Virus record (IMG/VR): IMGVR_UViG_3300041405_000133
Span: 109,948 to 129,947 of that record
Origin: an uncultured virus (IMG/VR IMGVR_UViG_3300041405_000133)
Taxonomy: Duplodnaviria > Heunggongvirae > Uroviricota > Caudoviricetes
DNA: 20,000 nucleotides
Reading direction: 5' to 3' (one strand)
Shown here: piece by piece, positions 1,944 to 19,925 of the stretch
Layout of the letters: the number at the start of each line of letters is the position of its first letter
Position numbering within the stretch: the stretch's first letter is position 1
Notes under the pieces: generated by a model
What the model was told of the DNA's origin: nothing
What the model saw: only the letters and a program-made list of their open reading frames with translations
Databases searched by the model: none
Made by a program: the position numbers and the translations under genes

Positions 1944-2642
1944 ATGTCCCGTACTGGTCCTCGTGAAAGAAAGCCTGTAATCCGCAACAAGCCCCGTGAG
2001 GATCTTGAGGATAAAGGCTCTGAAGCTTACCGGGCTTATGTTCAGGAAGGTCTTGAGCGAATGGCTAAAGCAGCCACAGAGATCAATGACTCCACGGCTG
2101 AGCGTAAGCGTAAGGTCCCTGAGCAATACTTCGTCAACATCCTTCTGCCGGTTCTGCGTAAGTGGATTCGTCGGGAAGAAGTTGAAATCGGCCACTACCT
2201 GAACGTAGCCGATGGTCTCAACAATGAGATCGAGGTTGTCGATCAGGAAGGCGTGAAACTGTACGATGTACCACCATTGTTTGTAGACGTACCCACTCGA
2301 GTGGCGCGCCATGAACCTGGTGTCAATATCCCAACTATCCACAAGTTGGTTCAGATTCAGGGGATGCACGTTGATAACAACGACATGCGTCAAGTCTTCA
2401 CGATCGAGAACGATCTGGTTGACATCTTGGCTCCGCGTGCAGAAGACGCATCCAAGACCCGGTGTCTGGTGATGTTGTGCTACATCTACGATCGCTACGA
2501 GCTGCCTCTTGAGGAACTCGTGGGTGAGAAACTCGCTCCCGTTATTGCAGCGGCCTTGAGGGCTGCTAAAAAGCCCGGTACTAACGCCATTGCAGAGAGC
2601 GGTAATAATGCAAGATCCGACGACGACTTTATCATCGACTAA
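1944..2642 (+). CDS. Conserved chimallivirus hypothetical protein (phiKZ gp64-like)
   Basis: 232-aa ORF with an AGGAG SD. It lies directly upstream of, and overlaps, the SbcD gene. Acidic end DDDFIID. Orthology is by synteny. Confidence 0.7.
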   Translation: MSRTGPRERKPVIRNKPREDLEDKGSEAYRAYVQEGLERMAKAATEINDSTAERKRKVPEQYFVNILLPVLRKWIRREEVEIGHYLNVADGLNNEIEVVDQEGVKLYDVPPLFVDVPTRVARHEPGVNIPTIHKLVQIQGMHVDNNDMRQVFTIENDLVDILAPRAEDASKTRCLVMLCYIYDRYELPLEELVGEKLAPVIAAALRAAKKPGTNAIAESGNNARSDDDFIID

Positions 2643-3795
2643 AGGCACCGTCATCAAGGTGGGGCTTAGCCGCCTCACCTACGCTGTCAGACAAGCGGGT
2701 GACCTGCTGATCGCTGTTATCAGCGACGTACACCTCGGACATAACCGGGTTAAGTCTGGAAAGATTGTAGATGTACTGGAGAAGACCTTCCATGAAGAGC
2801 GGATGAAAGTTCTGGATGTGATCATTATCTCCGGTGATCTGTTTGACAAACGTCTCGCTTATGACAGCGATGACGCGTTCGTGATTACACGGTGGATGGA
2901 ACGTTTCCTGAAACTGGCTGCAAAGCACAACGTAGCTATCCGAATCCTTGAAGGTACGCCTAGCCACGATAACAGACAGTCCCGCTGGATGATTCAGTAC
3001 AACGAAATGATTGAGGCCAATGCCGACATCAAGTACTACGAGAACATCGTCATCGATGAACTCATCCCCGGTGGTCCGACTGTCCTGTATATTCAGGATG
3101 AAGTGAACCACGACGCTAACAAGACCTGGAAGATGGTTCAGGACTTGATGCGGGAGCAAGGCATAGACAAGGTAGACTTTGCCGTTATGCACGGCATGTT
3201 CACCTATCAGGAGCCTGTACGCAGTATCTCGAGTCATCTTGAGGAACGGTACGAATCAATCGTAGTTCATTTGATCATCATTGGTCACAATCACCACCAC
3301 ACGACCAGTGGTAAGATTCGTGTGCCGTCCTCTACTGAAAGACTTAGGTTTAATGAAGAGGATGACAAAGGACATCTACAATTCTGCTTCTCCCCAACGG
3401 AAGGCGTCTACGATGAGTTCTTTGTGGTCAATGAAGAAGCGACCATCTTCACGACTATCGAGGTAGTGGGCAAGACACTGAACCAAGTGATTGCTACCCT
3501 CAAGAAATACAACGGCAGTCCAGACGGTAGTTACTTCCGTTTGAAGCTAAGCCGAAACGATGAGGCTTACACAGCCTTAACCCGAATAACCGTAGAATTC
3601 CCGCAGTTTAACATCTCTACCAAAGTAGTGGATGGCGCTGGTGACCTTGACACCGAAGATACTGGACTGATAGTTGAGACCGTGACCCTGACATCAATCA
3701 GGCCAGACACGCTCATGCAGCTACTCCTTCCACGTCTAGAGGGTACGCCTGATGACATCATGAAGGAGATCGTGAAGGTGCTGGAGAAAGGCTAA
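2608..3795 (+). CDS. sbcD: SbcD/Mre11-like metallophosphoesterase nuclease (phiKZ gp65-like)
   Basis: Calcineurin-like motifs ISDVHLG, SGDLFD, EGTPSHD, MHG and GHNH. ATG 2608 overlaps the upstream gene; the ORF track extends to a TTG at 2590. Confidence 0.9.
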   Translation: MQDPTTTLSSTKGTVIKVGLSRLTYAVRQAGDLLIAVISDVHLGHNRVKSGKIVDVLEKTFHEERMKVLDVIIISGDLFDKRLAYDSDDAFVITRWMERFLKLAAKHNVAIRILEGTPSHDNRQSRWMIQYNEMIEANADIKYYENIVIDELIPGGPTVLYIQDEVNHDANKTWKMVQDLMREQGIDKVDFAVMHGMFTYQEPVRSISSHLEERYESIVVHLIIIGHNHHHTTSGKIRVPSSTERLRFNEEDDKGHLQFCFSPTEGVYDEFFVVNEEATIFTTIEVVGKTLNQVIATLKKYNGSPDGSYFRLKLSRNDEAYTALTRITVEFPQFNISTKVVDGAGDLDTEDTGLIVETVTLTSIRPDTLMQLLLPRLEGTPDDIMKEIVKVLEKG

Positions 3796-3808: not shown

Positions 3809-4666
3809 ATGACCGTTGAGAATATTTCACGAGAGAAGCTGTCCGAAAGAGCCATGGGTCAGTTTCCAATCTCCATTGCTACAAGTCTGGCAATCGAGTC
3901 TCTGGTCGGTATCCTTCCTGAGGCTCCTACGGACTCGCCTGAGATCTTCAAGCGGGACCTGCTACTGATCAACATCCGCACGTTGATTCGTAACCTGTTG
4001 GGCTCTGTAGATAAGGAGGCGCGCGCTTTACTCGAAGAGTACACGATGGCTGAAGCCGTCAGTAACGAGATGCGCGTTATTGAGGAGATCATCTCAGAGA
4101 CGTCAGATGGTCGATGTGAAGTAAAGTTCTATCACTGCACGTATGGCGATGTTCCGCGCAAGTACAAGCAAGCTCTGTTGAAAGCTCCGACCACAACAGC
4201 ACAACACATGTACTGGGCTCAGAAGAATCTGGTGATCAAGAATCTCCTGACTCAATTTGAGAGCGGTTCTCCTATCGAGCAGTACACAACCGACTTCCCT
4301 GACTTCAATTACAAGACAGTGCTTCTGACGCATTATCCGATCGACCTGCTACAAAGGTATCGGTTTACCTCGTTAGCGCTCTTAGAATCGCACACAGGGG
4401 CTATAAAGACACCTCTTATGTGGAACACGAAGTTACTTGGCGGGAAGGAGAATCCGAACCTGCCTTTTGACAAGATGACCTTGCAGATGTTTGGTGATGG
4501 GATTCTATTCAGCCCGATGCCTATCAAGATCCGCAAACGTGTTCTGGAGCTAGCTGAGACCTACAAATGGACTCCGGCTACCACTAAGGCTTTGATCATT
4601 GACTCTGCGGCGGCTCGTAAAGATCCAGCCTTGGAGATGCTGATCAAGGATCTCTATAGTGCGTAA
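3809..4666 (+). CDS. Conserved chimallivirus hypothetical protein (phiKZ gp66-like)
   Basis: 285-aa ORF with an AGGA SD, between SbcD and the ChmC-like gene. Orthology is by synteny. Confidence 0.7.
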   Translation: MTVENISREKLSERAMGQFPISIATSLAIESLVGILPEAPTDSPEIFKRDLLLINIRTLIRNLLGSVDKEARALLEEYTMAEAVSNEMRVIEEIISETSDGRCEVKFYHCTYGDVPRKYKQALLKAPTTTAQHMYWAQKNLVIKNLLTQFESGSPIEQYTTDFPDFNYKTVLLTHYPIDLLQRYRFTSLALLESHTGAIKTPLMWNTKLLGGKENPNLPFDKMTLQMFGDGILFSPMPIKIRKRVLELAETYKWTPATTKALIIDSAAARKDPALEMLIKDLYSA

Positions 4667-4730
4667 ATAGTTATGAATAGGGACAATGGAATGTCCAGAA
4701 ACCACATTCATCCTCACTCAGGTGATTTAC

Positions 4731-5528
4731 ATGTCGCAACAACCCGAAAAGAAACGCCGCGAACCGGAAGCCATCGACGACGGTAAACTCCGTCTGTACG
4801 GCGCTCCTCAGAAGGAAGGCGCCCGTCAGACAATGATCCGGGTGAAGCTGGATTCGAACAACAACAACCCGATCATCGAGGTCGACTTCGGTTACAAGAC
4901 CGAACCGAAAGCCGGCAAGTCTGAAGGCTTCCCGGTCAAGATCGATACGCCGATGGCGCCGATCCCTTTCCGTACCCTGATGAACCTGATCATCCGTGTT
5001 GCGAACTACAACGGCGAAGTGTCGTTCGAAGTCGACAATTGGGGCTTCCCATTCATGTGGGATGCGGATCAGCGTAAGAGTGTTCGTGCCAAAGAGAAGA
5101 TGATCATCTCTCGCTTCCAAGTGGCCAAACGTGAAGACGGTGTTGTAACCTTCGGCATCACTGCCAAAGGCAAGCCAGACATGGTTCACGAGTTCAAATC
5201 TGACGAATACCACATGATCATGCAAAATGGTCAGCCGGTTGACGTGAAGATCTCTAGCCGTGAAGCAGCGATTGCAACTGCTGAAGCCTGGCTGGAAGTG
5301 TACTACGAGCGCTTCACCAACAAGTGGGAAGAACCTGAGTACCAGAAGAAGCGTCGTCTGGAAAACATGCAGAAAGCCCAAAATGGCGGCGGCGGTTACC
5401 AGCAACGTAACAACAATGGTGGCGGCGGTGGTAACAACTACCAGCAACGTCCTCCTCAGCAACAGCAACAGCAGCCATCAGCGCCTCTTGGCGACGGTAA
5501 CGGCTTCGACGACGATATCCCTTTCTAG
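4731..5528 (+). CDS. chmC: Probable ChmC/Imp6 phage-nucleus-associated nucleic-acid-binding protein (phiKZ gp67 / PhiPA3 gp61-like)
   Basis: AGGTGA SD before ATG 4731; the ORF track start at 4686 is likely too far upstream. Beta-rich core plus a G/N/Q-rich disordered tail ending FDDDIPF. It lies immediately upstream of the gp68-like gene, where chmC is found in chimalliviruses. Confidence 0.7.
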   Translation: MSQQPEKKRREPEAIDDGKLRLYGAPQKEGARQTMIRVKLDSNNNNPIIEVDFGYKTEPKAGKSEGFPVKIDTPMAPIPFRTLMNLIIRVANYNGEVSFEVDNWGFPFMWDADQRKSVRAKEKMIISRFQVAKREDGVVTFGITAKGKPDMVHEFKSDEYHMIMQNGQPVDVKISSREAAIATAEAWLEVYYERFTNKWEEPEYQKKRRLENMQKAQNGGGGYQQRNNNGGGGGNNYQQRPPQQQQQQPSAPLGDGNGFDDDIPF

Positions 5529-5667: not shown

Positions 5668-7257
5668 ATGGAATTCAGCATCACTGGATTTACCAAACGA
5701 AGTTTCTCAGCTGTCGCTGTGTCCCACCCTGGTGAAAACGATATCATCATTAATGCTGCGGGTTACGCTAACGCTAAACCGGGTGCAGTAAAGAACGATG
5801 ACGAGTTCGGGATGCGCGTCGAGCTGTTCAGCGAGATCAATGATCTCATCAGCCGTTACAGTAAGGGGGATCAACAAAAGCTGTACGATTGCTACGCCCG
5901 CCTTGACACGGTGCTGGACTCGTACGGTACAGATGTAAAAGCCAGTGAATTCATGGAGTTGCTGCAAGATATCGTTAAAGGTATCTTCGACATCGTGAAG
6001 TTCGAAGATCTGCGTGATTACCTGACCAGTAATAAGAACATCAAGTTCCCCGCAGAACTGGCCGACACTTACGTTACAGCGGATAAGATCACTCCGATCT
6101 ACATGGAGCGTACTTATCTGAAACGGGAATACATCGATCTGGCAGCAGTGGCATTGGGCCTGCGGTGCATGATTCCTGTTTGGGGAGCCTTCCTTCCAAT
6201 CGCTATAAAGGAAGAAGGTCCGAAGAAGAAGGAGTACGTTGCGTACAAACTTCTGGAAACCTGCCTGCTCAAAGAGTGTCCTGCATTCGATCGTCTGGAA
6301 ACTTACGTTCGGGCAAACACTACAGAGATGGAACACGAGATGGCTATCATCTTCGAGTTCCTGTCATCCGAGGAGATCCCTGTCTTCCTGATGGCACTGG
6401 CATTGATCCGTAAGGTTTCGATCGCCCCGTTGTCCGCAGAGACGGATAAGGATCACTTGATGAAGGTGGTCTTCAACTACGTCTGCGGTAACAACAACAG
6501 ACTTCCGGCGGCATTCGGCGGTAACATCCGGTCGAAGATCGATGTGGAAGCAGCAACAGACGACAACAGTTCGGTCTGGTGCTATTACAAAATGAAGGAG
6601 CAGATCAGTACTGGCGACCTCTGCATCTTCCAGCTGTACATCACCGATTACCTCGAGGCAGCTCGGGCAATCGATCAAGAGATCACTGACGAACAAACCG
6701 AGATGTGCGTAGCCCGCGCGCAGAAGTTGGCACGGTTTGATCCGAACGATGCACAAGTAGCTCTCTGCATCTGGGTTATGTCTACAGTGGTAGCAGGTTG
6801 TGCGATCGAGATGTTCGACCGTAACACTCTGTTCACGGCAATGGGTATTTCCCAGACCGTCCTGTGGAAGTGGGGTTTCCATCAATTGGCAATCCTACAA
6901 ACAGCAGCTCCCGTCCAGATGGCAGACGACGAGATGATGACCCCGGTTCCTAGAACCAAGATCAGCGACGAGAACATGAAACAGCTGGAATACATCTATC
7001 CTTACACAATGCCGGAGAGCAAGAAGGATAGTGGTCAATCACCAAACGTTGGGGTACGTGGGGTGGAAGACGCGGCAAATGTATTCTTTAAGAACGAGTG
7101 GGAACCTCAGTGCCCGCGCCAATTGGCAGCGAAGTACGAGCGGACAGACGTTACCCGGCGTCTGCAAGTTTCCAGTGACTTCCGTGATGAGCTGGCTGAG
7201 TTGTTTATCAAGCTGGACGGTTACGTACGTCACATCCCTATCCCGGTAATGGACTGA
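5668..7257 (+). CDS. Probable non-virion RNA polymerase sigma-like specificity subunit (phiKZ gp68-like)
   Basis: About 530 aa, predicted helical, in the gp67-gp68-gp69-gp70-gp71 position. GGAG SD precedes ATG 5668; alternative start GTG 5647. Confidence 0.75.
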   Translation: MEFSITGFTKRSFSAVAVSHPGENDIIINAAGYANAKPGAVKNDDEFGMRVELFSEINDLISRYSKGDQQKLYDCYARLDTVLDSYGTDVKASEFMELLQDIVKGIFDIVKFEDLRDYLTSNKNIKFPAELADTYVTADKITPIYMERTYLKREYIDLAAVALGLRCMIPVWGAFLPIAIKEEGPKKKEYVAYKLLETCLLKECPAFDRLETYVRANTTEMEHEMAIIFEFLSSEEIPVFLMALALIRKVSIAPLSAETDKDHLMKVVFNYVCGNNNRLPAAFGGNIRSKIDVEAATDDNSSVWCYYKMKEQISTGDLCIFQLYITDYLEAARAIDQEITDEQTEMCVARAQKLARFDPNDAQVALCIWVMSTVVAGCAIEMFDRNTLFTAMGISQTVLWKWGFHQLAILQTAAPVQMADDEMMTPVPRTKISDENMKQLEYIYPYTMPESKKDSGQSPNVGVRGVEDAANVFFKNEWEPQCPRQLAAKYERTDVTRRLQVSSDFRDELAELFIKLDGYVRHIPIPVMD

Positions 7258-7297: not shown

Positions 7298-8890
7298 ATG
7301 GAACTTGTTAAACTTATCTTCGTGGAAACTGAAGGCAGCGACACTCCAGTCATTCGTCCTTACGAAACCACGCTGAAGAAAGACGACCTCGATCTCTTCG
7401 CCAAGGCTACCGATGACGGCTCGAACCTGAGCACCATTCGTCTGGCCAAGGTAGTTGCGCCACTCCTCGGTCCATCGAACCGTCGTCAACACAAGTCCCA
7501 CATCAGCAATGGTTGGGATACCACTCGGATCATGTTCGGGATGGTTGTTAAGGTGATGAACCGTGACAACGCCAGCACCTACGAATATATCGTGGGTTAT
7601 ACCGATCACAGCGAACACGCCCGTCGTGGCGATAACGCGAAGTTCGATGCTGGCATGAAGATGTACTTCAACAACATCACGCGGGTCCACATGCAGGAAT
7701 CCCGTCACCGCGATAGCAATATCTGGGTGCCGAAGATCCAAGCGCATGACCAGATCCTGCTTCGCTCCAGCCTGACTGGTTCTGATCGTGGCACTACCCG
7801 TGGCGGCGATCGTCCAGTTACTCTGCGCCCTACCGACTTGTTCAAACGTGGTGGTGCAGATGCGGCATTCGGTTCGTTCATGCGTGATAACGACAGCAAT
7901 GTCAACAACACCGTTGGTTCGTTCAGCTCGGCAATCCGTGCATCGAACGTTGTCAACAATAGCCAGACCGCTTACGCGGCCCGTAACCTGAATGCGTGGA
8001 TGCAGGCGAGCAACTCGCCTAACGATGCGTACGTCGGTGACGGTAATGATGAAGACACCATCCAGGCAACTTCTGATCGGTTGGCAGAGAACTCTCTGGA
8101 ACTCGATCCGTATCTGGAGCGTATCAAGCGCGACACCAACATTCTCCGTGAAGGTTGCATTACTTTCGGCGAACTGATGGACATGAACGAAGACTTCGAT
8201 GAAGATCGTCAGTTGATGTTCGTTCCGTTGGACAAACGTAAGCGCGGTGGTTTCATCAACAACTCCGCTTGGGGTGAAGATACCAACGAGGCGATTGCAG
8301 CGACCATCATCGCAAACTCCCTGCCTGGCATTCTGATCAACTCGATGTATTCGTCGGTGTCTGGTCTGGTGCTGAACAGTCGTGCCCGCTTCGGCGAGTA
8401 CAAAGTGGTTTGCTCTGAGCCAACTCCGTTTGCTCCAGGCATGTCGGTTAAGGCGAACTGGCCGTACTTCGAAAGTCAGATCGAACACGTTCTGATGGAA
8501 GAAGTTGGTTGCGGTGGTGCGTTTGAGTTCGAAGCGTACATCGACGCGAACATCGACCAGTTCATCAAGATCCGTATCCGGATGGACGGCGGTGAAGAAG
8601 CATCGTTCAACTTCCCAGCGTATGCGTCCAGCCTTCTGGCGCCTACTCAGGATAAAGACTTCAAGTCGCTCGATCGGATGTCGAAAGGCGTTATCGATCT
8701 GGCCTCTGGTCTGTCGAACATGCGGATGTCGCGCTCTGGCGTTGGGGCTCGTGAAGACGGCCTGAACACTGGCAGTGAAAGTCGCATCAATCTGGCTCCA
8801 AGCAGTAAAGAGTCGCGTCCTCGGGATAACGATTACAGAGCCGCTCCAGCAGCAGCATCTGGCGAACGTAAAGGTGGTAAGGGCTGGTAA
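7298..8890 (+). CDS. picA: Probable phage-nucleus protein import factor PicA/Imp1 (phiKZ gp69-like)
   Basis: 530 aa with a strong AGGAG SD. It lies between the gp68-like and gp70-like genes, upstream of nvRNAP beta. Called from synteny and size, not from a motif. Confidence 0.7.
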   Translation: MELVKLIFVETEGSDTPVIRPYETTLKKDDLDLFAKATDDGSNLSTIRLAKVVAPLLGPSNRRQHKSHISNGWDTTRIMFGMVVKVMNRDNASTYEYIVGYTDHSEHARRGDNAKFDAGMKMYFNNITRVHMQESRHRDSNIWVPKIQAHDQILLRSSLTGSDRGTTRGGDRPVTLRPTDLFKRGGADAAFGSFMRDNDSNVNNTVGSFSSAIRASNVVNNSQTAYAARNLNAWMQASNSPNDAYVGDGNDEDTIQATSDRLAENSLELDPYLERIKRDTNILREGCITFGELMDMNEDFDEDRQLMFVPLDKRKRGGFINNSAWGEDTNEAIAATIIANSLPGILINSMYSSVSGLVLNSRARFGEYKVVCSEPTPFAPGMSVKANWPYFESQIEHVLMEEVGCGGAFEFEAYIDANIDQFIKIRIRMDGGEEASFNFPAYASSLLAPTQDKDFKSLDRMSKGVIDLASGLSNMRMSRSGVGAREDGLNTGSESRINLAPSSKESRPRDNDYRAAPAAASGERKGGKGW

Positions 8891-8930: not shown

Positions 8931-10196
8931 GTGATGAGTGGAAGTAAGCTCGATCGAATGAATGACTTCAACCGAAAGGTCCTACTTGACGTAGGGGTTT
9001 TCGAAGAAGAAGTAGATGACGGCCATCTGTCCTACCTTAAGGACGGTAAGCCATCTCCAGTGACCCTGAACAAGACCCGTCTGTGCATCACTGTACAGAA
9101 GATCTTGAAAGAAGGCCTGGGCGAAGAACGTACTGGGTTCCATCCCCTTGCTGAACAGATCACCGAAGGTCCAAGTCCTGTACTGAATGCCTTCAAGAAC
9201 TACGTCGGTGAGCGCATCAAGGCAACGGTTCGCCATATCGGCCTGTCGTTGATGGAACTGGCATCCGACTCCAAGCGCCACAAAGGCATGTCTGCCAAGG
9301 CTTCCAAGTATCTGACCGCTCTGGCAGGTATTGGTGAAGTCGATGAAAAGACTGTCGATACCATGCGCAAGGTGTTCGATGCTGTCAGTCAGGTTCCTGA
9401 GAAGCACCTGATTACCATTATCCTGAAAGCCAAGACCGACGACGGCAGTCTGCGTCAATCGGTTGTAACCTTCCCGATCATGGATGAAGCCGATAGCGAA
9501 GAAACCGAAACCTTCTTTGGCGTGAAGATGCCACGGAAGACCAAGGACAAAGCGCTGATTGTATCGGTTCTCGAATACATCCTTGGCGACGAGCCAGCTC
9601 GCAAGATGTACACCTCCGGCAGTAAGAACGGCAACTCGCCGTACTTCCACAGCCTGTTGCTGTCCTTCCACAAGCTGGCGACTCGATTGAACGACATCCT
9701 CACCGTACATGCGCCTAAGTGCCCATCGTTCGAAGAGCTGAAGTTCAATCTGGACTGGAGCGATGAACTCGATAACTTCGACGACTTCGCCAAGGTTTGC
9801 AGCCGAGCAGTTCCTGCTCTGCCGGGTAACACCGGTAAGGAAATCGAAGAAGAACGTTCTGCGTTCGAAGCAAGTGCGAGTGATGTTGGTGCCGATGATG
9901 ATCTGCCGTGGAATGAACCTAAAGCCAAACTCACCATCGGTAGCGATGACGAGAAGCGTCCGGCTGCTGGTTCGAGTTTCCGCGACACTGTCAGCAGCTC
10001 TCGTTCGAGCCGTGATCGTGATGATGATCGCTCGGATAGCCGTTCGAATCATGGAAGCTTCCGTGACTTGATGGGCGGTAAGGGTCGTGACCGCGATCGT
10101 GACGATCGTGATAGCCGTCGTGAAAGCCCAAGCTGGCGTTCAGGGCGTGATCGTGATGATCGTGACCGTGGTGGTCGCGGTGGCCGCGGCTGGTAA
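8931..10196 (+). CDS. Conserved chimallivirus protein (phiKZ gp70-like) with R/D/S/G low-complexity C-terminus
   Basis: 421-aa ORF (GTG 8931 or ATG 8934) in the gp70 position. The C-terminus has RDRDDD and RGGRGGRGW repeats. Confidence 0.75.
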   Translation: MMSGSKLDRMNDFNRKVLLDVGVFEEEVDDGHLSYLKDGKPSPVTLNKTRLCITVQKILKEGLGEERTGFHPLAEQITEGPSPVLNAFKNYVGERIKATVRHIGLSLMELASDSKRHKGMSAKASKYLTALAGIGEVDEKTVDTMRKVFDAVSQVPEKHLITIILKAKTDDGSLRQSVVTFPIMDEADSEETETFFGVKMPRKTKDKALIVSVLEYILGDEPARKMYTSGSKNGNSPYFHSLLLSFHKLATRLNDILTVHAPKCPSFEELKFNLDWSDELDNFDDFAKVCSRAVPALPGNTGKEIEEERSAFEASASDVGADDDLPWNEPKAKLTIGSDDEKRPAAGSSFRDTVSSSRSSRDRDDDRSDSRSNHGSFRDLMGGKGRDRDRDDRDSRRESPSWRSGRDRDDRDRGGRGGRGW

Positions 10197-10671: not shown

Positions 10672-12852
10672 ATGAATCCATTTGATCCAACCGATCATTT
10701 ACCTCAAGAGCGCTACACCATTCCACCGGAGATGGTTCCGATCAGTGGTTTAAACTCTCAGTTCAAATGTGTCTCTGGTGCCCGTCAAGCAATGTTCACC
10801 GGTAACCTGTCCCAAGTATTGATCGTGGATGGACGTACCCGTAAACGCCAGCAGACTGGGTTGGAACGCGAGATTGCCAAAGCTACATTTAACCATCAGT
10901 TTCCTCGTGAAGCTGTGGTGTTGGCGATCATCCCACGATTTACATCCCGTAACTTCGGCGATAAGTTCCAGATCAACCCGTTCGATCTGGTGATCTACGA
11001 GGATTGGGAAACGAAAGAGCTGGACGTGGTCGAGTTGAGCAAGTTTCACGTAATGCACCAGCATTACGGATTCGAGTTCGAATACGATCAGGACGTCTAC
11101 GACGCCATCGTTAAAGGTAAACGTTTCAAGGCAGGTACGGTTATTGCTCGTTCTCCGGCTGTTACGGATGATGGCGACTACATGTACGGCCTGGAAACCA
11201 ACGTCTGCATGATCTCTGATCCGGCAGGTACTGAAGACGGTGTAAAGATCAGTCAGAGTTATGCCAAGCGTATTCGCTCGACAGGCTTTGAAAGTCGGAT
11301 TGCTCGCTTCGGCGGTAGTCATTACCCAATTAACTGGAACGGTAACCTGGAAGAGTACAAACCTATTCCAGACATCGGTGATTTCATCCAGTCAAACGGT
11401 CTGATCTGCGCATCACGGCCTTTCGATCCAAAGTATGATCCAGTCTACATGACTCGGACCAAGCTGCTTAAACCGCAGTATGGGTTGGACACACCGCTGT
11501 ACGGCGTACCGAACGCTCAAGTCGTAGACATCCGAGTCCTTCATAACGATAGGCTGTCTTCCCCGAAACTACCAAAGGAAATGACCAAACAGTTCCTGAA
11601 GTACTACGAGGCCGACCAAGAGTTCTACACCAAGATCGTTAAGACGTGCCTCTGCCGGAAAGGTAACTTCCTGGCTGACGACGTTGCAATGTCTCCACGT
11701 CTGCGCATTCTCCTGTACGAAGCAATCGCACGTAGCGGTGAGCGTCTGCTGGAAGAAGGCATCTGGCCGAAGAGCAAAGCCGACCAACTGCGTGTTCGCA
11801 CGAAGTATCGCGGCGAGATCTTGGATGAGTTCCGTGTGGAAATCATCTACCAGTACAAGACGTCGGTTGGTGAAGGTCCTAAGGTTACTGACCAATCTGG
11901 CGGTAAAGGTGTTACTTCGGCGGTTGCTCCAGACGAAGACATGCCTACAGACGAGAACGGTATTCGAGCCGACGTGGTGATCTTCTCGAACTCCACGGTA
12001 AACCGTCTGAACAACGGTCGTCAACATACCCAGGTAATCGGTGCTGCTGGCCGGGATATCATCAAACGTGTTCGTAAGTCTTACGGCTTGCCAGCCTTCG
12101 GTCCGATTGATCGGGAAGAAGTCAAACGTGCGGTGACGTCTCAGAACAACATGGCTGTAACCATGAAGAACTTTGCGTACATCATCGGCTTCTATAAGCT
12201 GGTGGCGCCTGCAATGTACGAACGTCTGACGCGTAACGATGTCATTCCGCAAGGGATTCACTTGCAGCATGTAATCGAATGCATCATGGACGGCGAAGAT
12301 CCTCACGGTCTGTTCCTGCAACTCGCATCCTCTGACGAAGTCTACATGGACAAAGTCATCAAGGAGATCGAATCAGGTCCGTACATGCCAGATCTGACGC
12401 CAGTGACCTACCGGAACCTGGCTGGCGATATGGTAACCACCAAGACCAGCATCTTGATCGGTCCTGACTACTACCTGCCTTTGGAGAAGACGGCTACCGA
12501 CGGTTCCGGTGTATCGTCCTCCAAGACCAACCACTTCGGCGTTACTGCCCGTCTGACGAATGCTGACAAATATGCCAGCCCTGGCCGTGAAACCGTAACC
12601 AAATCTACCGGTGAGTCCGAAGCGCGTAACCACGCTCACGCTTATGGTGCTGAGCCCCTTGCTCACATCATGGACTTGAACTACAACCCGGTGGTCCACA
12701 AAGAAGCCTGCATGACGATCCTCACCCACGAGACACCGACCAACATCGAATGTCTTGTTGACCGTGAGAAGTTTAAGCTTGGTGGACATCGTCCGCTGGC
12801 TTACGTTCGCCACATGATGGCCGTATCTGGTAAGAATATCTCCAGGGAGTAA
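10672..12852 (+). CDS. Non-virion RNA polymerase beta subunit, C-terminal half (phiKZ gp71-73-like)
   Basis: Matches to RpoB motifs: ARQAMFTGNLSQ (NRALMG.NMQRQ), GTEDGVKIS (NFEDSI.IS), GPKVTDQSGGKGV (GDK.AGRHGNKGV), EDMP.DENG..ADV, NRLNNGR (SRMNIGQ), GESEAR...AYGA (GEME..ALEAYGA). AAGGAG SD. Confidence 0.92.
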   Translation: MNPFDPTDHLPQERYTIPPEMVPISGLNSQFKCVSGARQAMFTGNLSQVLIVDGRTRKRQQTGLEREIAKATFNHQFPREAVVLAIIPRFTSRNFGDKFQINPFDLVIYEDWETKELDVVELSKFHVMHQHYGFEFEYDQDVYDAIVKGKRFKAGTVIARSPAVTDDGDYMYGLETNVCMISDPAGTEDGVKISQSYAKRIRSTGFESRIARFGGSHYPINWNGNLEEYKPIPDIGDFIQSNGLICASRPFDPKYDPVYMTRTKLLKPQYGLDTPLYGVPNAQVVDIRVLHNDRLSSPKLPKEMTKQFLKYYEADQEFYTKIVKTCLCRKGNFLADDVAMSPRLRILLYEAIARSGERLLEEGIWPKSKADQLRVRTKYRGEILDEFRVEIIYQYKTSVGEGPKVTDQSGGKGVTSAVAPDEDMPTDENGIRADVVIFSNSTVNRLNNGRQHTQVIGAAGRDIIKRVRKSYGLPAFGPIDREEVKRAVTSQNNMAVTMKNFAYIIGFYKLVAPAMYERLTRNDVIPQGIHLQHVIECIMDGEDPHGLFLQLASSDEVYMDKVIKEIESGPYMPDLTPVTYRNLAGDMVTTKTSILIGPDYYLPLEKTATDGSGVSSSKTNHFGVTARLTNADKYASPGRETVTKSTGESEARNHAHAYGAEPLAHIMDLNYNPVVHKEACMTILTHETPTNIECLVDREKFKLGGHRPLAYVRHMMAVSGKNISRE

Positions 12853-18188: not shown

Positions 18189-19925
18189 TTACTGGGCGTC
18201 AGAGTAATACAGGATCACGTTCTGACGCTCTTCTTCATTCGGCACGTAGCGCAGAATGTTGTCGAGCTTGTAGATCTTGGCTTCACGCTGGCGAGTACCA
18301 GGTACGCGGGTGTGGATCAGCAACGACATCAGGTCTTCGAAGGTCAGTGCAGCAGACTTCGAGATACCCAACTGATTGTAACCACGACGTGCGATTTCCG
18401 GCAGGAACAGCAGGGTGTAGTTGGTGTTGACGAAGTCCAGCAGGATGTTCCAGCCTTCGGTGAAGCCGACGCTGTCACGAGCCATTACTTGACGGATTGC
18501 TTTGTACAGCATGACTTGCGCCTTACCGGCGGTATCGTCAGTCAGGTTCTTGCCGTACTTGGACATGGCGTCCTTGTATTCGTCAAGTTTGGATTTCAGC
18601 AGGATGTTGTCCATGGAAGCTTCCGTAGGTGTATCAGCGAGGGTTTCGAGAATGCGTTGGCCGCTGAACTCTGCGGACAGACCCAGGCGCGCCTTCAGGC
18701 TTTCGACCAGGTCTTCCTTCGAGTGTTCGCTTTCGATCTGATCCAGCAGAGCCGAGCGCAGTTCGAGGTGAGTCCACTGAGAAGGAGTCTTACGGTCACG
18801 CATGCGGTCTTCGATCAGAACACCGTGTTCGGTAACAGCAGGCTTCTCGCCGGTCTGTACGAACAGCTTGACAGCTTCGTGAGTCCAGTTGTTAGGCAGG
18901 CGGTAACGTTTGTAGAGCTCGTCGTAGATCAGCTCTTCATCCATGCCTTTCGGAGTCAGGATCAGACCATCAACCCAGTCAGCCAGTTCGCCGCCAGTCC
19001 AGTTGATCATGCTCTGACCACGACGCAGGTCGATAGGCCAGCTACCACGAGCGGTCTTGGTTGGTTGAGCTTTGGTTTCGACGTAGGTCAGCAGGGTATC
19101 GCGGTCCCAGGCAGCCAGAGCATCAGCCGTCAGAACGCCGGTCAGATCAGCACGCAGACCTTCCAGAGAGGTAGGGTCGAGAGGGGTAGCCTCTTCTTCC
19201 TCATCCGGAACAGCTTCGTCTTCTTCGTCAGCCTTGGCGTCTTCGTCGACTTGAGGCTCTTCAGCCGGAGCATCAGGCTCGGCCCCTTCTTCACCTTCAG
19301 GCGGAGTTTGATCTTCCGCTGGAGTTTCAGGAGTCACCGGAAGCTCGACCACTTCAGACAGATCGGTGATTTGAACGGTCACTTCCATTGCCGGTTCAAC
19401 GACTTCAGGAGCTGGCTCTTCAACCACTACCTTTGGTTCAACGATGTCGCCAGCAGCCAGGTGTGCGGCTGCCGCGGCAGCTTCTTCAGCTTCAGTAACT
19501 TCAGGCTCTTCGGCGAGAGCAGCTTGTTCATCTTCTACCGATTCTTCCAGCGGCTGAACTTCATCAGCAGGACCAATCAATTCGGCCATGAGCAGGCGAA
19601 CCATTTCAACCGTGTTGGCATTGCCAGCTTCGTCGAAGAAGAACGAACGCAGACGCTCAGCCCATTCTTCAGGTACGTGATCGGCACCGATGGTATCCTG
19701 ATCAACAGTCCGCAACATCCAATCGATCTGACCAGCCAATTCAGTGTCAGACATATTGGCGAAGCTGGTAGCCATCGCATCTGCGTCTACAGCGGCCACG
19801 GGCTCTTCAGAGCCTTCCTCAGCAACGATCGGAGCTTCTTGCTCCGGTTGTGCCTGTTCCAGCTGCTCTTCCACTACAACGGCTTCAGGAGCTTGCTGTT
19901 CGGTGTTCTCGTTATTCTGTTCCAT
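18189..19925 (-). CDS. Large protein with acidic E/A/P-rich N-terminus, internal tandem repeat and globular C-terminal domain (phiKZ gp77-like position)
   Basis: 578-aa ORF with an AGGA SD and strong codon bias. Orthology is inferred from its position after the helicase. Confidence 0.8.
   Translation of the reverse strand: MEQNNENTEQQAPEAVVVEEQLEQAQPEQEAPIVAEEGSEEPVAAVDADAMATSFANMSDTELAGQIDWMLRTVDQDTIGADHVPEEWAERLRSFFFDEAGNANTVEMVRLLMAELIGPADEVQPLEESVEDEQAALAEEPEVTEAEEAAAAAAHLAAGDIVEPKVVVEEPAPEVVEPAMEVTVQITDLSEVVELPVTPETPAEDQTPPEGEEGAEPDAPAEEPQVDEDAKADEEDEAVPDEEEEATPLDPTSLEGLRADLTGVLTADALAAWDRDTLLTYVETKAQPTKTARGSWPIDLRRGQSMINWTGGELADWVDGLILTPKGMDEELIYDELYKRYRLPNNWTHEAVKLFVQTGEKPAVTEHGVLIEDRMRDRKTPSQWTHLELRSALLDQIESEHSKEDLVESLKARLGLSAEFSGQRILETLADTPTEASMDNILLKSKLDEYKDAMSKYGKNLTDDTAGKAQVMLYKAIRQVMARDSVGFTEGWNILLDFVNTNYTLLFLPEIARRGYNQLGISKSAALTFEDLMSLLIHTRVPGTRQREAKIYKLDNILRYVPNEEERQNVILYYSDAQ

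Follow-up and report, generated by a model that had tools for sequence, protein, structure and literature searches.

Why should a protein of a nucleus-forming giant phage end in the same residues as the single-strand-binding protein (SSB) of a bacterium, and what might such an end do? The question is raised by a gene in the window, a stretch of 20,000 nucleotides from an uncultured virus. The open reading frame (ORF) concerned lies on the plus strand at 4731..5528; a TAG at 5526-5528 closes the frame, which reads ...AQNGGGGYQQRNNNGGGGGNNYQQRPPQQQQQQPSAPLGDGNGFDDDIPF, and the translated end of this ORF finishing at 5528 is ...QNGGGGYQQRNNNGGGGGNNYQQRPPQQQQQQPSAPLGDGNGFDDDIPF. The ATG at 4731 is the likely start, since a ribosome-binding-site-like AGGTG precedes it on the same strand (4720..4724) and homologues begin there. 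The product then counts 265 aa; an alternative ATG at 4686 would give 280 aa.

The virus is a chimallivirus, and the ORF is its chmC/imp6 gene, orthologous to phiKZ gp67, PhiPA3 gp61 and Goslar gp176; it shows every ChmC/Imp6 feature that was checked. The gene is an unexceptional family member, ChmC being already known as essential to giant phages that form a nucleus. The identity, already proposed in the initial annotation, is borne out by several searches. Goslar gp176 is the best named match in tblastn (E 2e-4, 26% identity over residues 12-181), a search of 50,697 phage records that gave matches in Goslar only (2 records). The family phrog_3284 spans the whole protein (E 3.6e-28), phiKZ gp67 is linked to it by phmmer (E 6e-5) together with synteny, and all 14 named orthologues score E 7e-16 or better with a family HMM built without the tail. 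Identity to the studied ChmC members is about 15-26%. Nothing significant was returned by a PDB sequence search with this protein alone, and a viral fold search matched uncharacterised jumbo-phage proteins. An Atlas search, to be taken as a lead only, placed viral clusters at 0.91 and a Whirly-bearing cluster at 0.82.

The gene order points the same way: phiKZ gp50, gp54, gp55, gp59, gp65-gp71, gp74 and gp75 map in order around chmC, and no match was found for gp62-gp64 at the syntenic position. The chimallin ChmA (phiKZ gp54) is matched in the contig (E 5e-9), so that chmC occupies its position in the conserved chimallin/non-virion RNA polymerase (nvRNAP) block; the end of this upstream chimallin reads ...GRGGLFDTIDY. 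Directly before chmC, all on the plus strand, are an SbcD-like nuclease (phiKZ gp65; 2590..3795; phrog_100, E 3e-40) and the orthologue of phiKZ gp66 and Goslar gp177 (3809..4666; 32% identity to gp177, E 1e-39), which has been described as T4 RNase H-related (PMC13648698). It is followed, again on the plus strand, by the nvRNAP subunit gp68 (5668..7257) and by Imp1/PicA (gp69; 7298..8890), a known direct binder of Imp6 for which a PDB sequence search gave nothing significant. Both Imp1/PicA (7298-8890) and gp70 (8931-10196) carry R/D-rich or basic low-complexity tails, with the ends G-K-G-W and R-G-W. Judging from their composition, the basic tails of these proteins adjoining chmC could interact with the acidic tip of ChmC. 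Further downstream, the nvRNAP beta-like subunit (phiKZ gp71-73) at 10672-12852 is a single uninterrupted ORF; its phiKZ counterpart is split by an intron/HNH gene that is absent from the copy in the window. On the minus strand, a 578-aa ORF at 18189-19925, at the position of phiKZ gp77, has a long, acidic, E/A/P-rich N-terminal half and no Pfam match.

Which fold carries the SSB-like end? In the AF2 model (mean pLDDT 82) the core is folded and residues 221-265 fall below pLDDT 50. The folded part, residues about 10-200 (4758..5330, plus strand; pLDDT mostly 82-98), appears to be a Whirly-like nucleic-acid-binding core. In a comparison with 48,161 solved chains, the top structural match was MRP1/MRP2 (Z 8.9, rmsd 6.4, 139 residues aligned), followed by StWhy2 (Z 8.8, rmsd 4.3, 135 aligned), PBF-2 (Z 8.4) and Pur-alpha (Z 7.7), the next match reaching only 5.8. 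The same Whirly class is ranked first by Foldseek, with a best E of 3e-3 and no match reaching E 0.001. These scores are modest, and the Whirly-like assignment of the modelled core is consistent with the published one. A canonical OB-fold core, which the initial annotation had named as the alternative to be distinguished by structure prediction, was not found: the Pfam SSB domain (PF00436) had no match in the protein or in the contig, with a working control, and the structural matches listed contained the Whirly class and no OB-fold. ChmC falls outside the family of OB-fold SSBs, whose layout it nevertheless shares.

Behind the core, residues 217-258 (5379..5504, plus strand) form a G/N/Q-rich linker, which composition and pLDDT mark as disordered, so that the disordered N/G-rich stretch before an acidic end, a feature of ChmC/Imp6, is present. 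The initial annotation was right in seeing here a 12-nt duplication and a stretch of a condensate-promoting type, since the G/N linker of the PhiPA3 orthologue drives condensates (PMC11077065). The repeat, TACCAGCAACGT, lies within the linker at 5397-5408 and again at 5439-5450, and it is the sole exact 12-nt repeat in the window with copies within 80 bp. Its copies encode YQQR twice in a low-complexity linker; as YQQR occurs twice in just 1 of 159 homologues, the repeat is a duplication of local origin that gives no hint of a function. A role as a DNA or RNA element was considered and rejected in favour of a coding duplication; between 4550 and 5750 no terminator-like site was found on the coding strand, and nothing stood clearly above shuffles.

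The protein ends with the acidic-hydrophobic tip FDDDIPF (5505..5525, plus strand), identical to the seven C-terminal residues of E. coli SSB, which finishes in DFDDDIPF (PMC10164576; PDB 1eqq). With the G/N/Q linker before it, this confirms the SSB-type tail that had been noticed in the sequence. The only matches of the family profile among PDB sequences are three SSB tails (E 0.02-0.07, tail only). The tip is not a product of chance: among the contig's 210 ORFs (130 kb, ORFs of at least 80 aa), chmC alone has an end of the type acid-hydrophobic-Pro-hydrophobic, and this end is kept across the family. Full-length searches gave 123 distinct homologues, with exact DDDIPF in 24, an acid-hydrophobic-Pro-hydrophobic end in 94 and a hydrophobic last residue in 117. 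The queries of these searches carried the tail, and for this reason a tail-free alignment of the present protein and 13 cultured orthologues was built and searched anew. Of the 43 homologues from this tail-free profile, 38 have a Pro-aromatic end, against 3 of the 210 contig ORFs. Among the 37 matches that were new, F(-7) is present in 31, P(-2) in 33 and F(-1) in 35, with the spacing of the SSB C-terminus (SSB-Ct). When the earlier homologues were rescored on the core alone, 52 of the 64 that passed had the acid-hydrophobic-Pro-hydrophobic end. The tail as an artefact of the homologue search is rejected by these two results.

The distribution over the family leads to the same picture. A core tree of 173 proteins, from which the fragment P0160 was left out and in which a few near-duplicates were retained, contains 127 acid-hydrophobic-Pro-hydrophobic ends, 35 acidic ends with a hydrophobic last residue and 11 others, and the motif occurs on nearly all branches. 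An end [DE]xx[ILV]PF is present in 82 proteins whose median core identity is 22%. Among 159 proteins, conservation reaches 80% at D(-4) and likewise at P(-2), values biased upward by tail-bearing queries; in the same set only 9 of 193 core columns exceed 80% conservation, and linker positions reach 16-38%. The counts are not independent, as 123 of the 159 proteins stem from a tail-bearing query and many of the tail-free matches belong to one RAY-like clade. The idea that the tail is special to the source phage is rejected by its spread across the tree; what had been taken as a peculiarity of the ChmC-like protein in the window is the norm of the family.

Comparison of the C-termini across orthologues, as had been suggested, thus upholds the Pro-aromatic end as family-wide, but the exact DDDIPF is found in 0 of 14 cultured orthologues, chosen for spread from a Goslar-based search. 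Their tips are FDEDMPSF (phiKZ), FDDEIPNF (PhiPA3), AFDGLAF (Goslar), ELASFDW (201phi2-1), ELPSFDW (Viktualia), DFDDFVM (Noxifer), FADDLPF (RAY), GSEDLPF (FLC9), FDTDIPF (SNUABM_54), SSDDIPW (RP12), FDDISF (RSF1), YDDDVWG (Eowyn), FDTDVPM (AgentSmith) and SGSSTGW (Yong). A Pro-aromatic end is present in 4 of the 14 and a hydrophobic last residue in 13; the penultimate residue is Ser in phiKZ gp67 (PSF) and RSF1 ORF220 (ISF) and Asn in PhiPA3. With the E. coli SSB end as yardstick, the tip was not seen to track the host SSB among these 14 phages. The best-studied members are atypical, with drifted tips (GLAF in Goslar, SFDW in 201phi2-1, STGW in the Vibrio phage Yong), and this may be why the likeness to SSB was missed. 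The ChmC of Erwinia phage pEa_SNUABM_54 (a 470-aa CDS) is about twice the normal length and, by eye, apparently has two tandem ChmC-like cores before a single linker and a DTDIPF tip.

Much is known of this tail from orthologues, in which ChmC forms a tetramer, binds ssRNA with a Kd of 58 nM and ssDNA with a Kd of 184 nM (Hill 2.4), is bound to mRNA in vivo and is required for mRNA export (PMC11077065). Deletion of residues 204-251 in an orthologue abolishes condensates and localisation to the shell and leaves nucleic-acid binding intact; the loss of shell localisation is described for PhiPA3 ChmC, and tail-less Goslar ChmC supports growth of the nucleus but does not rescue the titre, the failure coming later (PMC11077065). 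Phage associates of ChmC are ChmB and gp62, the polymerase subunit Rhc co-purifies with it (PMC13648698), and phiKZ Imp6 binds Imp1 directly, in a 2:1 ratio (bioRxiv 10.1101/2024.03.27.586873). The tetramer, the binding of RNA and ssDNA, the tail-dependent condensates, the need for the tail in vivo and the binding of Imp1 are thus properties shown for orthologues of the present protein. In the accessible text of PMC11077065 the tail is divided into a region rich in N/G and an 'electronegative cluster' of S/D/E; neither the terminal I-P-F nor SSB is mentioned there.

ChmC is laid out on the plan of SSB with another fold, a Whirly-like single-strand-binding core, oligomeric in orthologues, being followed by linker and tip. 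The disordered G/N/Q linker would drive condensates, and the conserved amphipathic tip F-D-x-D-I/L-P-F with its free C-terminus would most likely serve as a short motif for docking. A partner would receive the terminal aromatic side chain and the carboxylate of the tip in a hydrophobic pocket that has basic residues at its rim, and in this way ChmC-coated mRNA or ssDNA would be tied to that partner. For SSB-Ct such a geometry has been described: the last Phe is buried in a hydrophobic pocket and basic residues hold the carboxylate and Asp residues; without the Phe partner binding is lost, and with a penultimate Ser (ssb-113) it is much reduced (PMC10164576). A register that is fixed from the C-terminus across cores of 20% identity would be easier to reconcile with a motif that binds in a pocket than with an acidic patch of diffuse character. 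We give about even chances to the tip being a docking motif for a candidate phage-encoded partner; a partner encoded by the phage (Imp1/PicA, ChmB, the non-virion RNA polymerase or Rhc) seems more likely than one encoded by the host. Against a docking tip stand the drifted tips of the best-studied members and the design of the published deletion, which took linker and tip together, so that loss of condensation alone can explain the phenotype. Furthermore, the description of the Imp1 pull-down names the tagged protein as Imp6-FLAG and also as FLAG-Imp6 (bioRxiv 10.1101/2024.03.27.586873); if the C-terminal tag on Imp6 is real, binding of Imp1 needs no free tip.

The same acidic end could also work in cis, as an electronegative cluster with an aromatic sticker that has no protein partner and either contacts the basic face where RNA binds, by folding back, or modulates condensation. 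SSB tips reportedly bind their own core, and a cis role agrees with the published reading of the S/D/E subregion (PMC11077065). It is nevertheless unlikely, as tail-less ChmC binds RNA and ssDNA about as well as the complete protein and with similar Hill coefficients (PMC11077065), the predicted monomer does not show the tip docked (pLDDT below 50), and the strict I-P-F register exceeds what charge requires.

Could the partner be a host protein after all? The initial annotation had suggested that the tip, by mimicking SSB, could recruit the host partners of SSB. It would then bind RecQ, PriA, ExoI, RNase HI or Pol III chi, either to enlist these proteins or to sequester them from host SSB within the cytoplasm, where part of ChmC is found (PMC11077065). 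The seven-residue identity to E. coli SSB-Ct makes binding in vitro expected, and the exact DDDIPF occurs in 24 of 123 homologues. Recruitment is not supported so far, however. The exact motif is lacking in the whole cultured set, and PhiPA3 carries an Asn, phiKZ and RSF1 a Ser of the ssb-113 type, which is a handicap with E. coli-like partners. In a table of 286 rows from a pull-down with sfGFP-ChmC, term searches did not find RecQ, PriA, ExoI, host RNase HI, uracil glycosylase or Pol III chi; this noisy table does list host SSB (2 peptides), TopA (3), RecA (1), RecBCD subunits and the Pol III beta chain (1). Since the tip of the bait had drifted and contacts of micromolar affinity do not readily survive a pull-down, this is weak evidence with regard to members with a perfect tip, and such members, the ChmC of the window among them, may still bind host partners. 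On balance, mimicry of host SSB is quite unlikely as the main role of the tip.

The least supported reading is that the tip licenses the import of host SSB partners into the phage nucleus, an idea suggested by the link of gp67/Imp6 with import. Direct binding of Imp1 by Imp6 in the 2:1 ratio speaks for it, but Imp6 owes its name to this binding and not to an import-defective mutant: import-escape mutations were found in imp1-imp5 and none in imp6, and TopA, the sole host cargo known to that study, requires Imp1, Imp3, Imp4 and Imp5 (bioRxiv 10.1101/2024.03.27.586873). Moreover, the phage nucleus excludes most host proteins. The proposal is thus not supported, and we regard it as highly improbable.

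A further possibility is that ChmC is itself the functional replication SSB of the chimalliviruses, with a tip that organises the phage replisome. This is what the tails of T7 gp2.5 and T4 gp32 and SSB-Ct do in their own systems. Pfam SSB is absent from all 14 cultured genomes (0/14, with the control matched in 11/14) and from the contig, which is 52%-complete and in which the control worked, and a survey of 2016 found no SSB in phiKZ-like phages, deemed this surprising and raised non-orthologous displacement (PMC4889955). The profiles of gp32, Enc34/gp2.5-like proteins and DUF669 each matched 0 of 5 records, and no control genome was matched either, so that a diverged SSB may exist. ChmC would suit the role by virtue of the tetramer and the ssDNA affinity of the orthologue, its great abundance, the smaller nuclei with less DNA after its knockdown, its co-purification with Rhc, and the SbcD-like and T4-RNase-H-like genes next to it. 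Several facts make a dedicated replication SSB improbable, however: RNA is preferred about threefold, and mRNA binding and export are what ChmC is known for in vivo; the nucleus still grows with tail-less Goslar ChmC; PhiPA3 ChmC is located at the shell; UvsX gave a proximity match in 1 of 3 trials; and the neighbouring gp177 is dispensable (PMC13648698). A broader form is doubtful, though worth stating: ChmC would be the long-missing single-strand-binding hub of phiKZ-like phages, a protein of Whirly fold that has acquired the complete SSB plan of tetramer, condensate linker and DDDIPF-type tip, its tip organising replication, transcription and shell-transport partners on ssDNA and mRNA, and in some lineages also engaging host SSB partners.

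In comparison with known systems, the protein resembles the studied ChmC/Imp6 proteins in homology, position between gp66 and gp68, Whirly-like core, N/G-rich linker and acidic end, but its linker is also Q-rich and its tip is a perfect FDDDIPF in place of EIPNF, DMPSF or DGLAF. With bacterial SSB the family shares the sequence of core, disordered G/Q/N/P linker and DFDDDIPF-type tip, as well as the tetramer and condensates of orthologues; it differs in the Whirly-like core and in the preference of an orthologue for RNA. The likeness to plant Whirly proteins and trypanosome MRP1/MRP2 lies in the predicted fold (Z 8.4-8.9, 131-139 residues aligned, rmsd 3.7-6.4), at 4-11% identity and with no Pfam Whirly match, whereas the prion-like linker and bacterial-type I-P-F tip belong to ChmC. 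An acidic C-terminal tail on a single-strand-binding protein is also shared with DUF669/N4 SSB, T7 gp2.5 and T4 gp32. The cores of gp2.5 and gp32 are of the OB type and their tails acidic. These proteins, DUF669/N4 SSB included, have OB-type cores and a replication role that is shown or proposed, in contrast to ChmC, for which the role shown is mRNA handling. Convergence on an SSB-like end has precedent: plant Whirly proteins have a disordered acidic/aromatic end that was suggested to act like that of SSB (PMC6963530), and SSBs of phages and bacteria typically have acidic tails; DUF669 was called an SSB from its acidic tail and the absence of another SSB (PMC4889955).

The motif alone is no marker of SSB, as it also ends the phiKZ gp196 family, which is unrelated to ChmC. 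This family, phrog_17880, of about 120 aa and unassigned function, is found in 52 phage records with 29-65% identity to phiKZ gp196, and its ends read EDEIPF, ANDIPF, PNKIPF or DDEIPF; members are phiKZ gp196, PhiPA3 gp228, Phabio gp289 and Paraglaciecola Antarctic GD virus 1 gp154. It occurs in phiKZ and PhiPA3, which have drifted ChmC tips, and is absent from the contig of the window. From its end, it may be regarded as a candidate stand-alone mimic of the SSB tip.

The protein itself is already known; its SSB-type tip is real and family-wide. No literature linking ChmC with SSB was found among the open papers searched, and the term 'SSB' is absent from the accessible text of PMC11077065, its preprint, the Imp and Rhc preprints, reviews and further papers. 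With the tip, two functions that were lost at once in the published deletion can be told apart, and the late step that needs the ChmC tail has so far been put down to condensation alone. The tip also bears on which protein replaces SSB in phiKZ-like phages and on the way in which the shell is coupled to mRNA export and to protein import, and it offers a simple handle for finding the partner of the tail.
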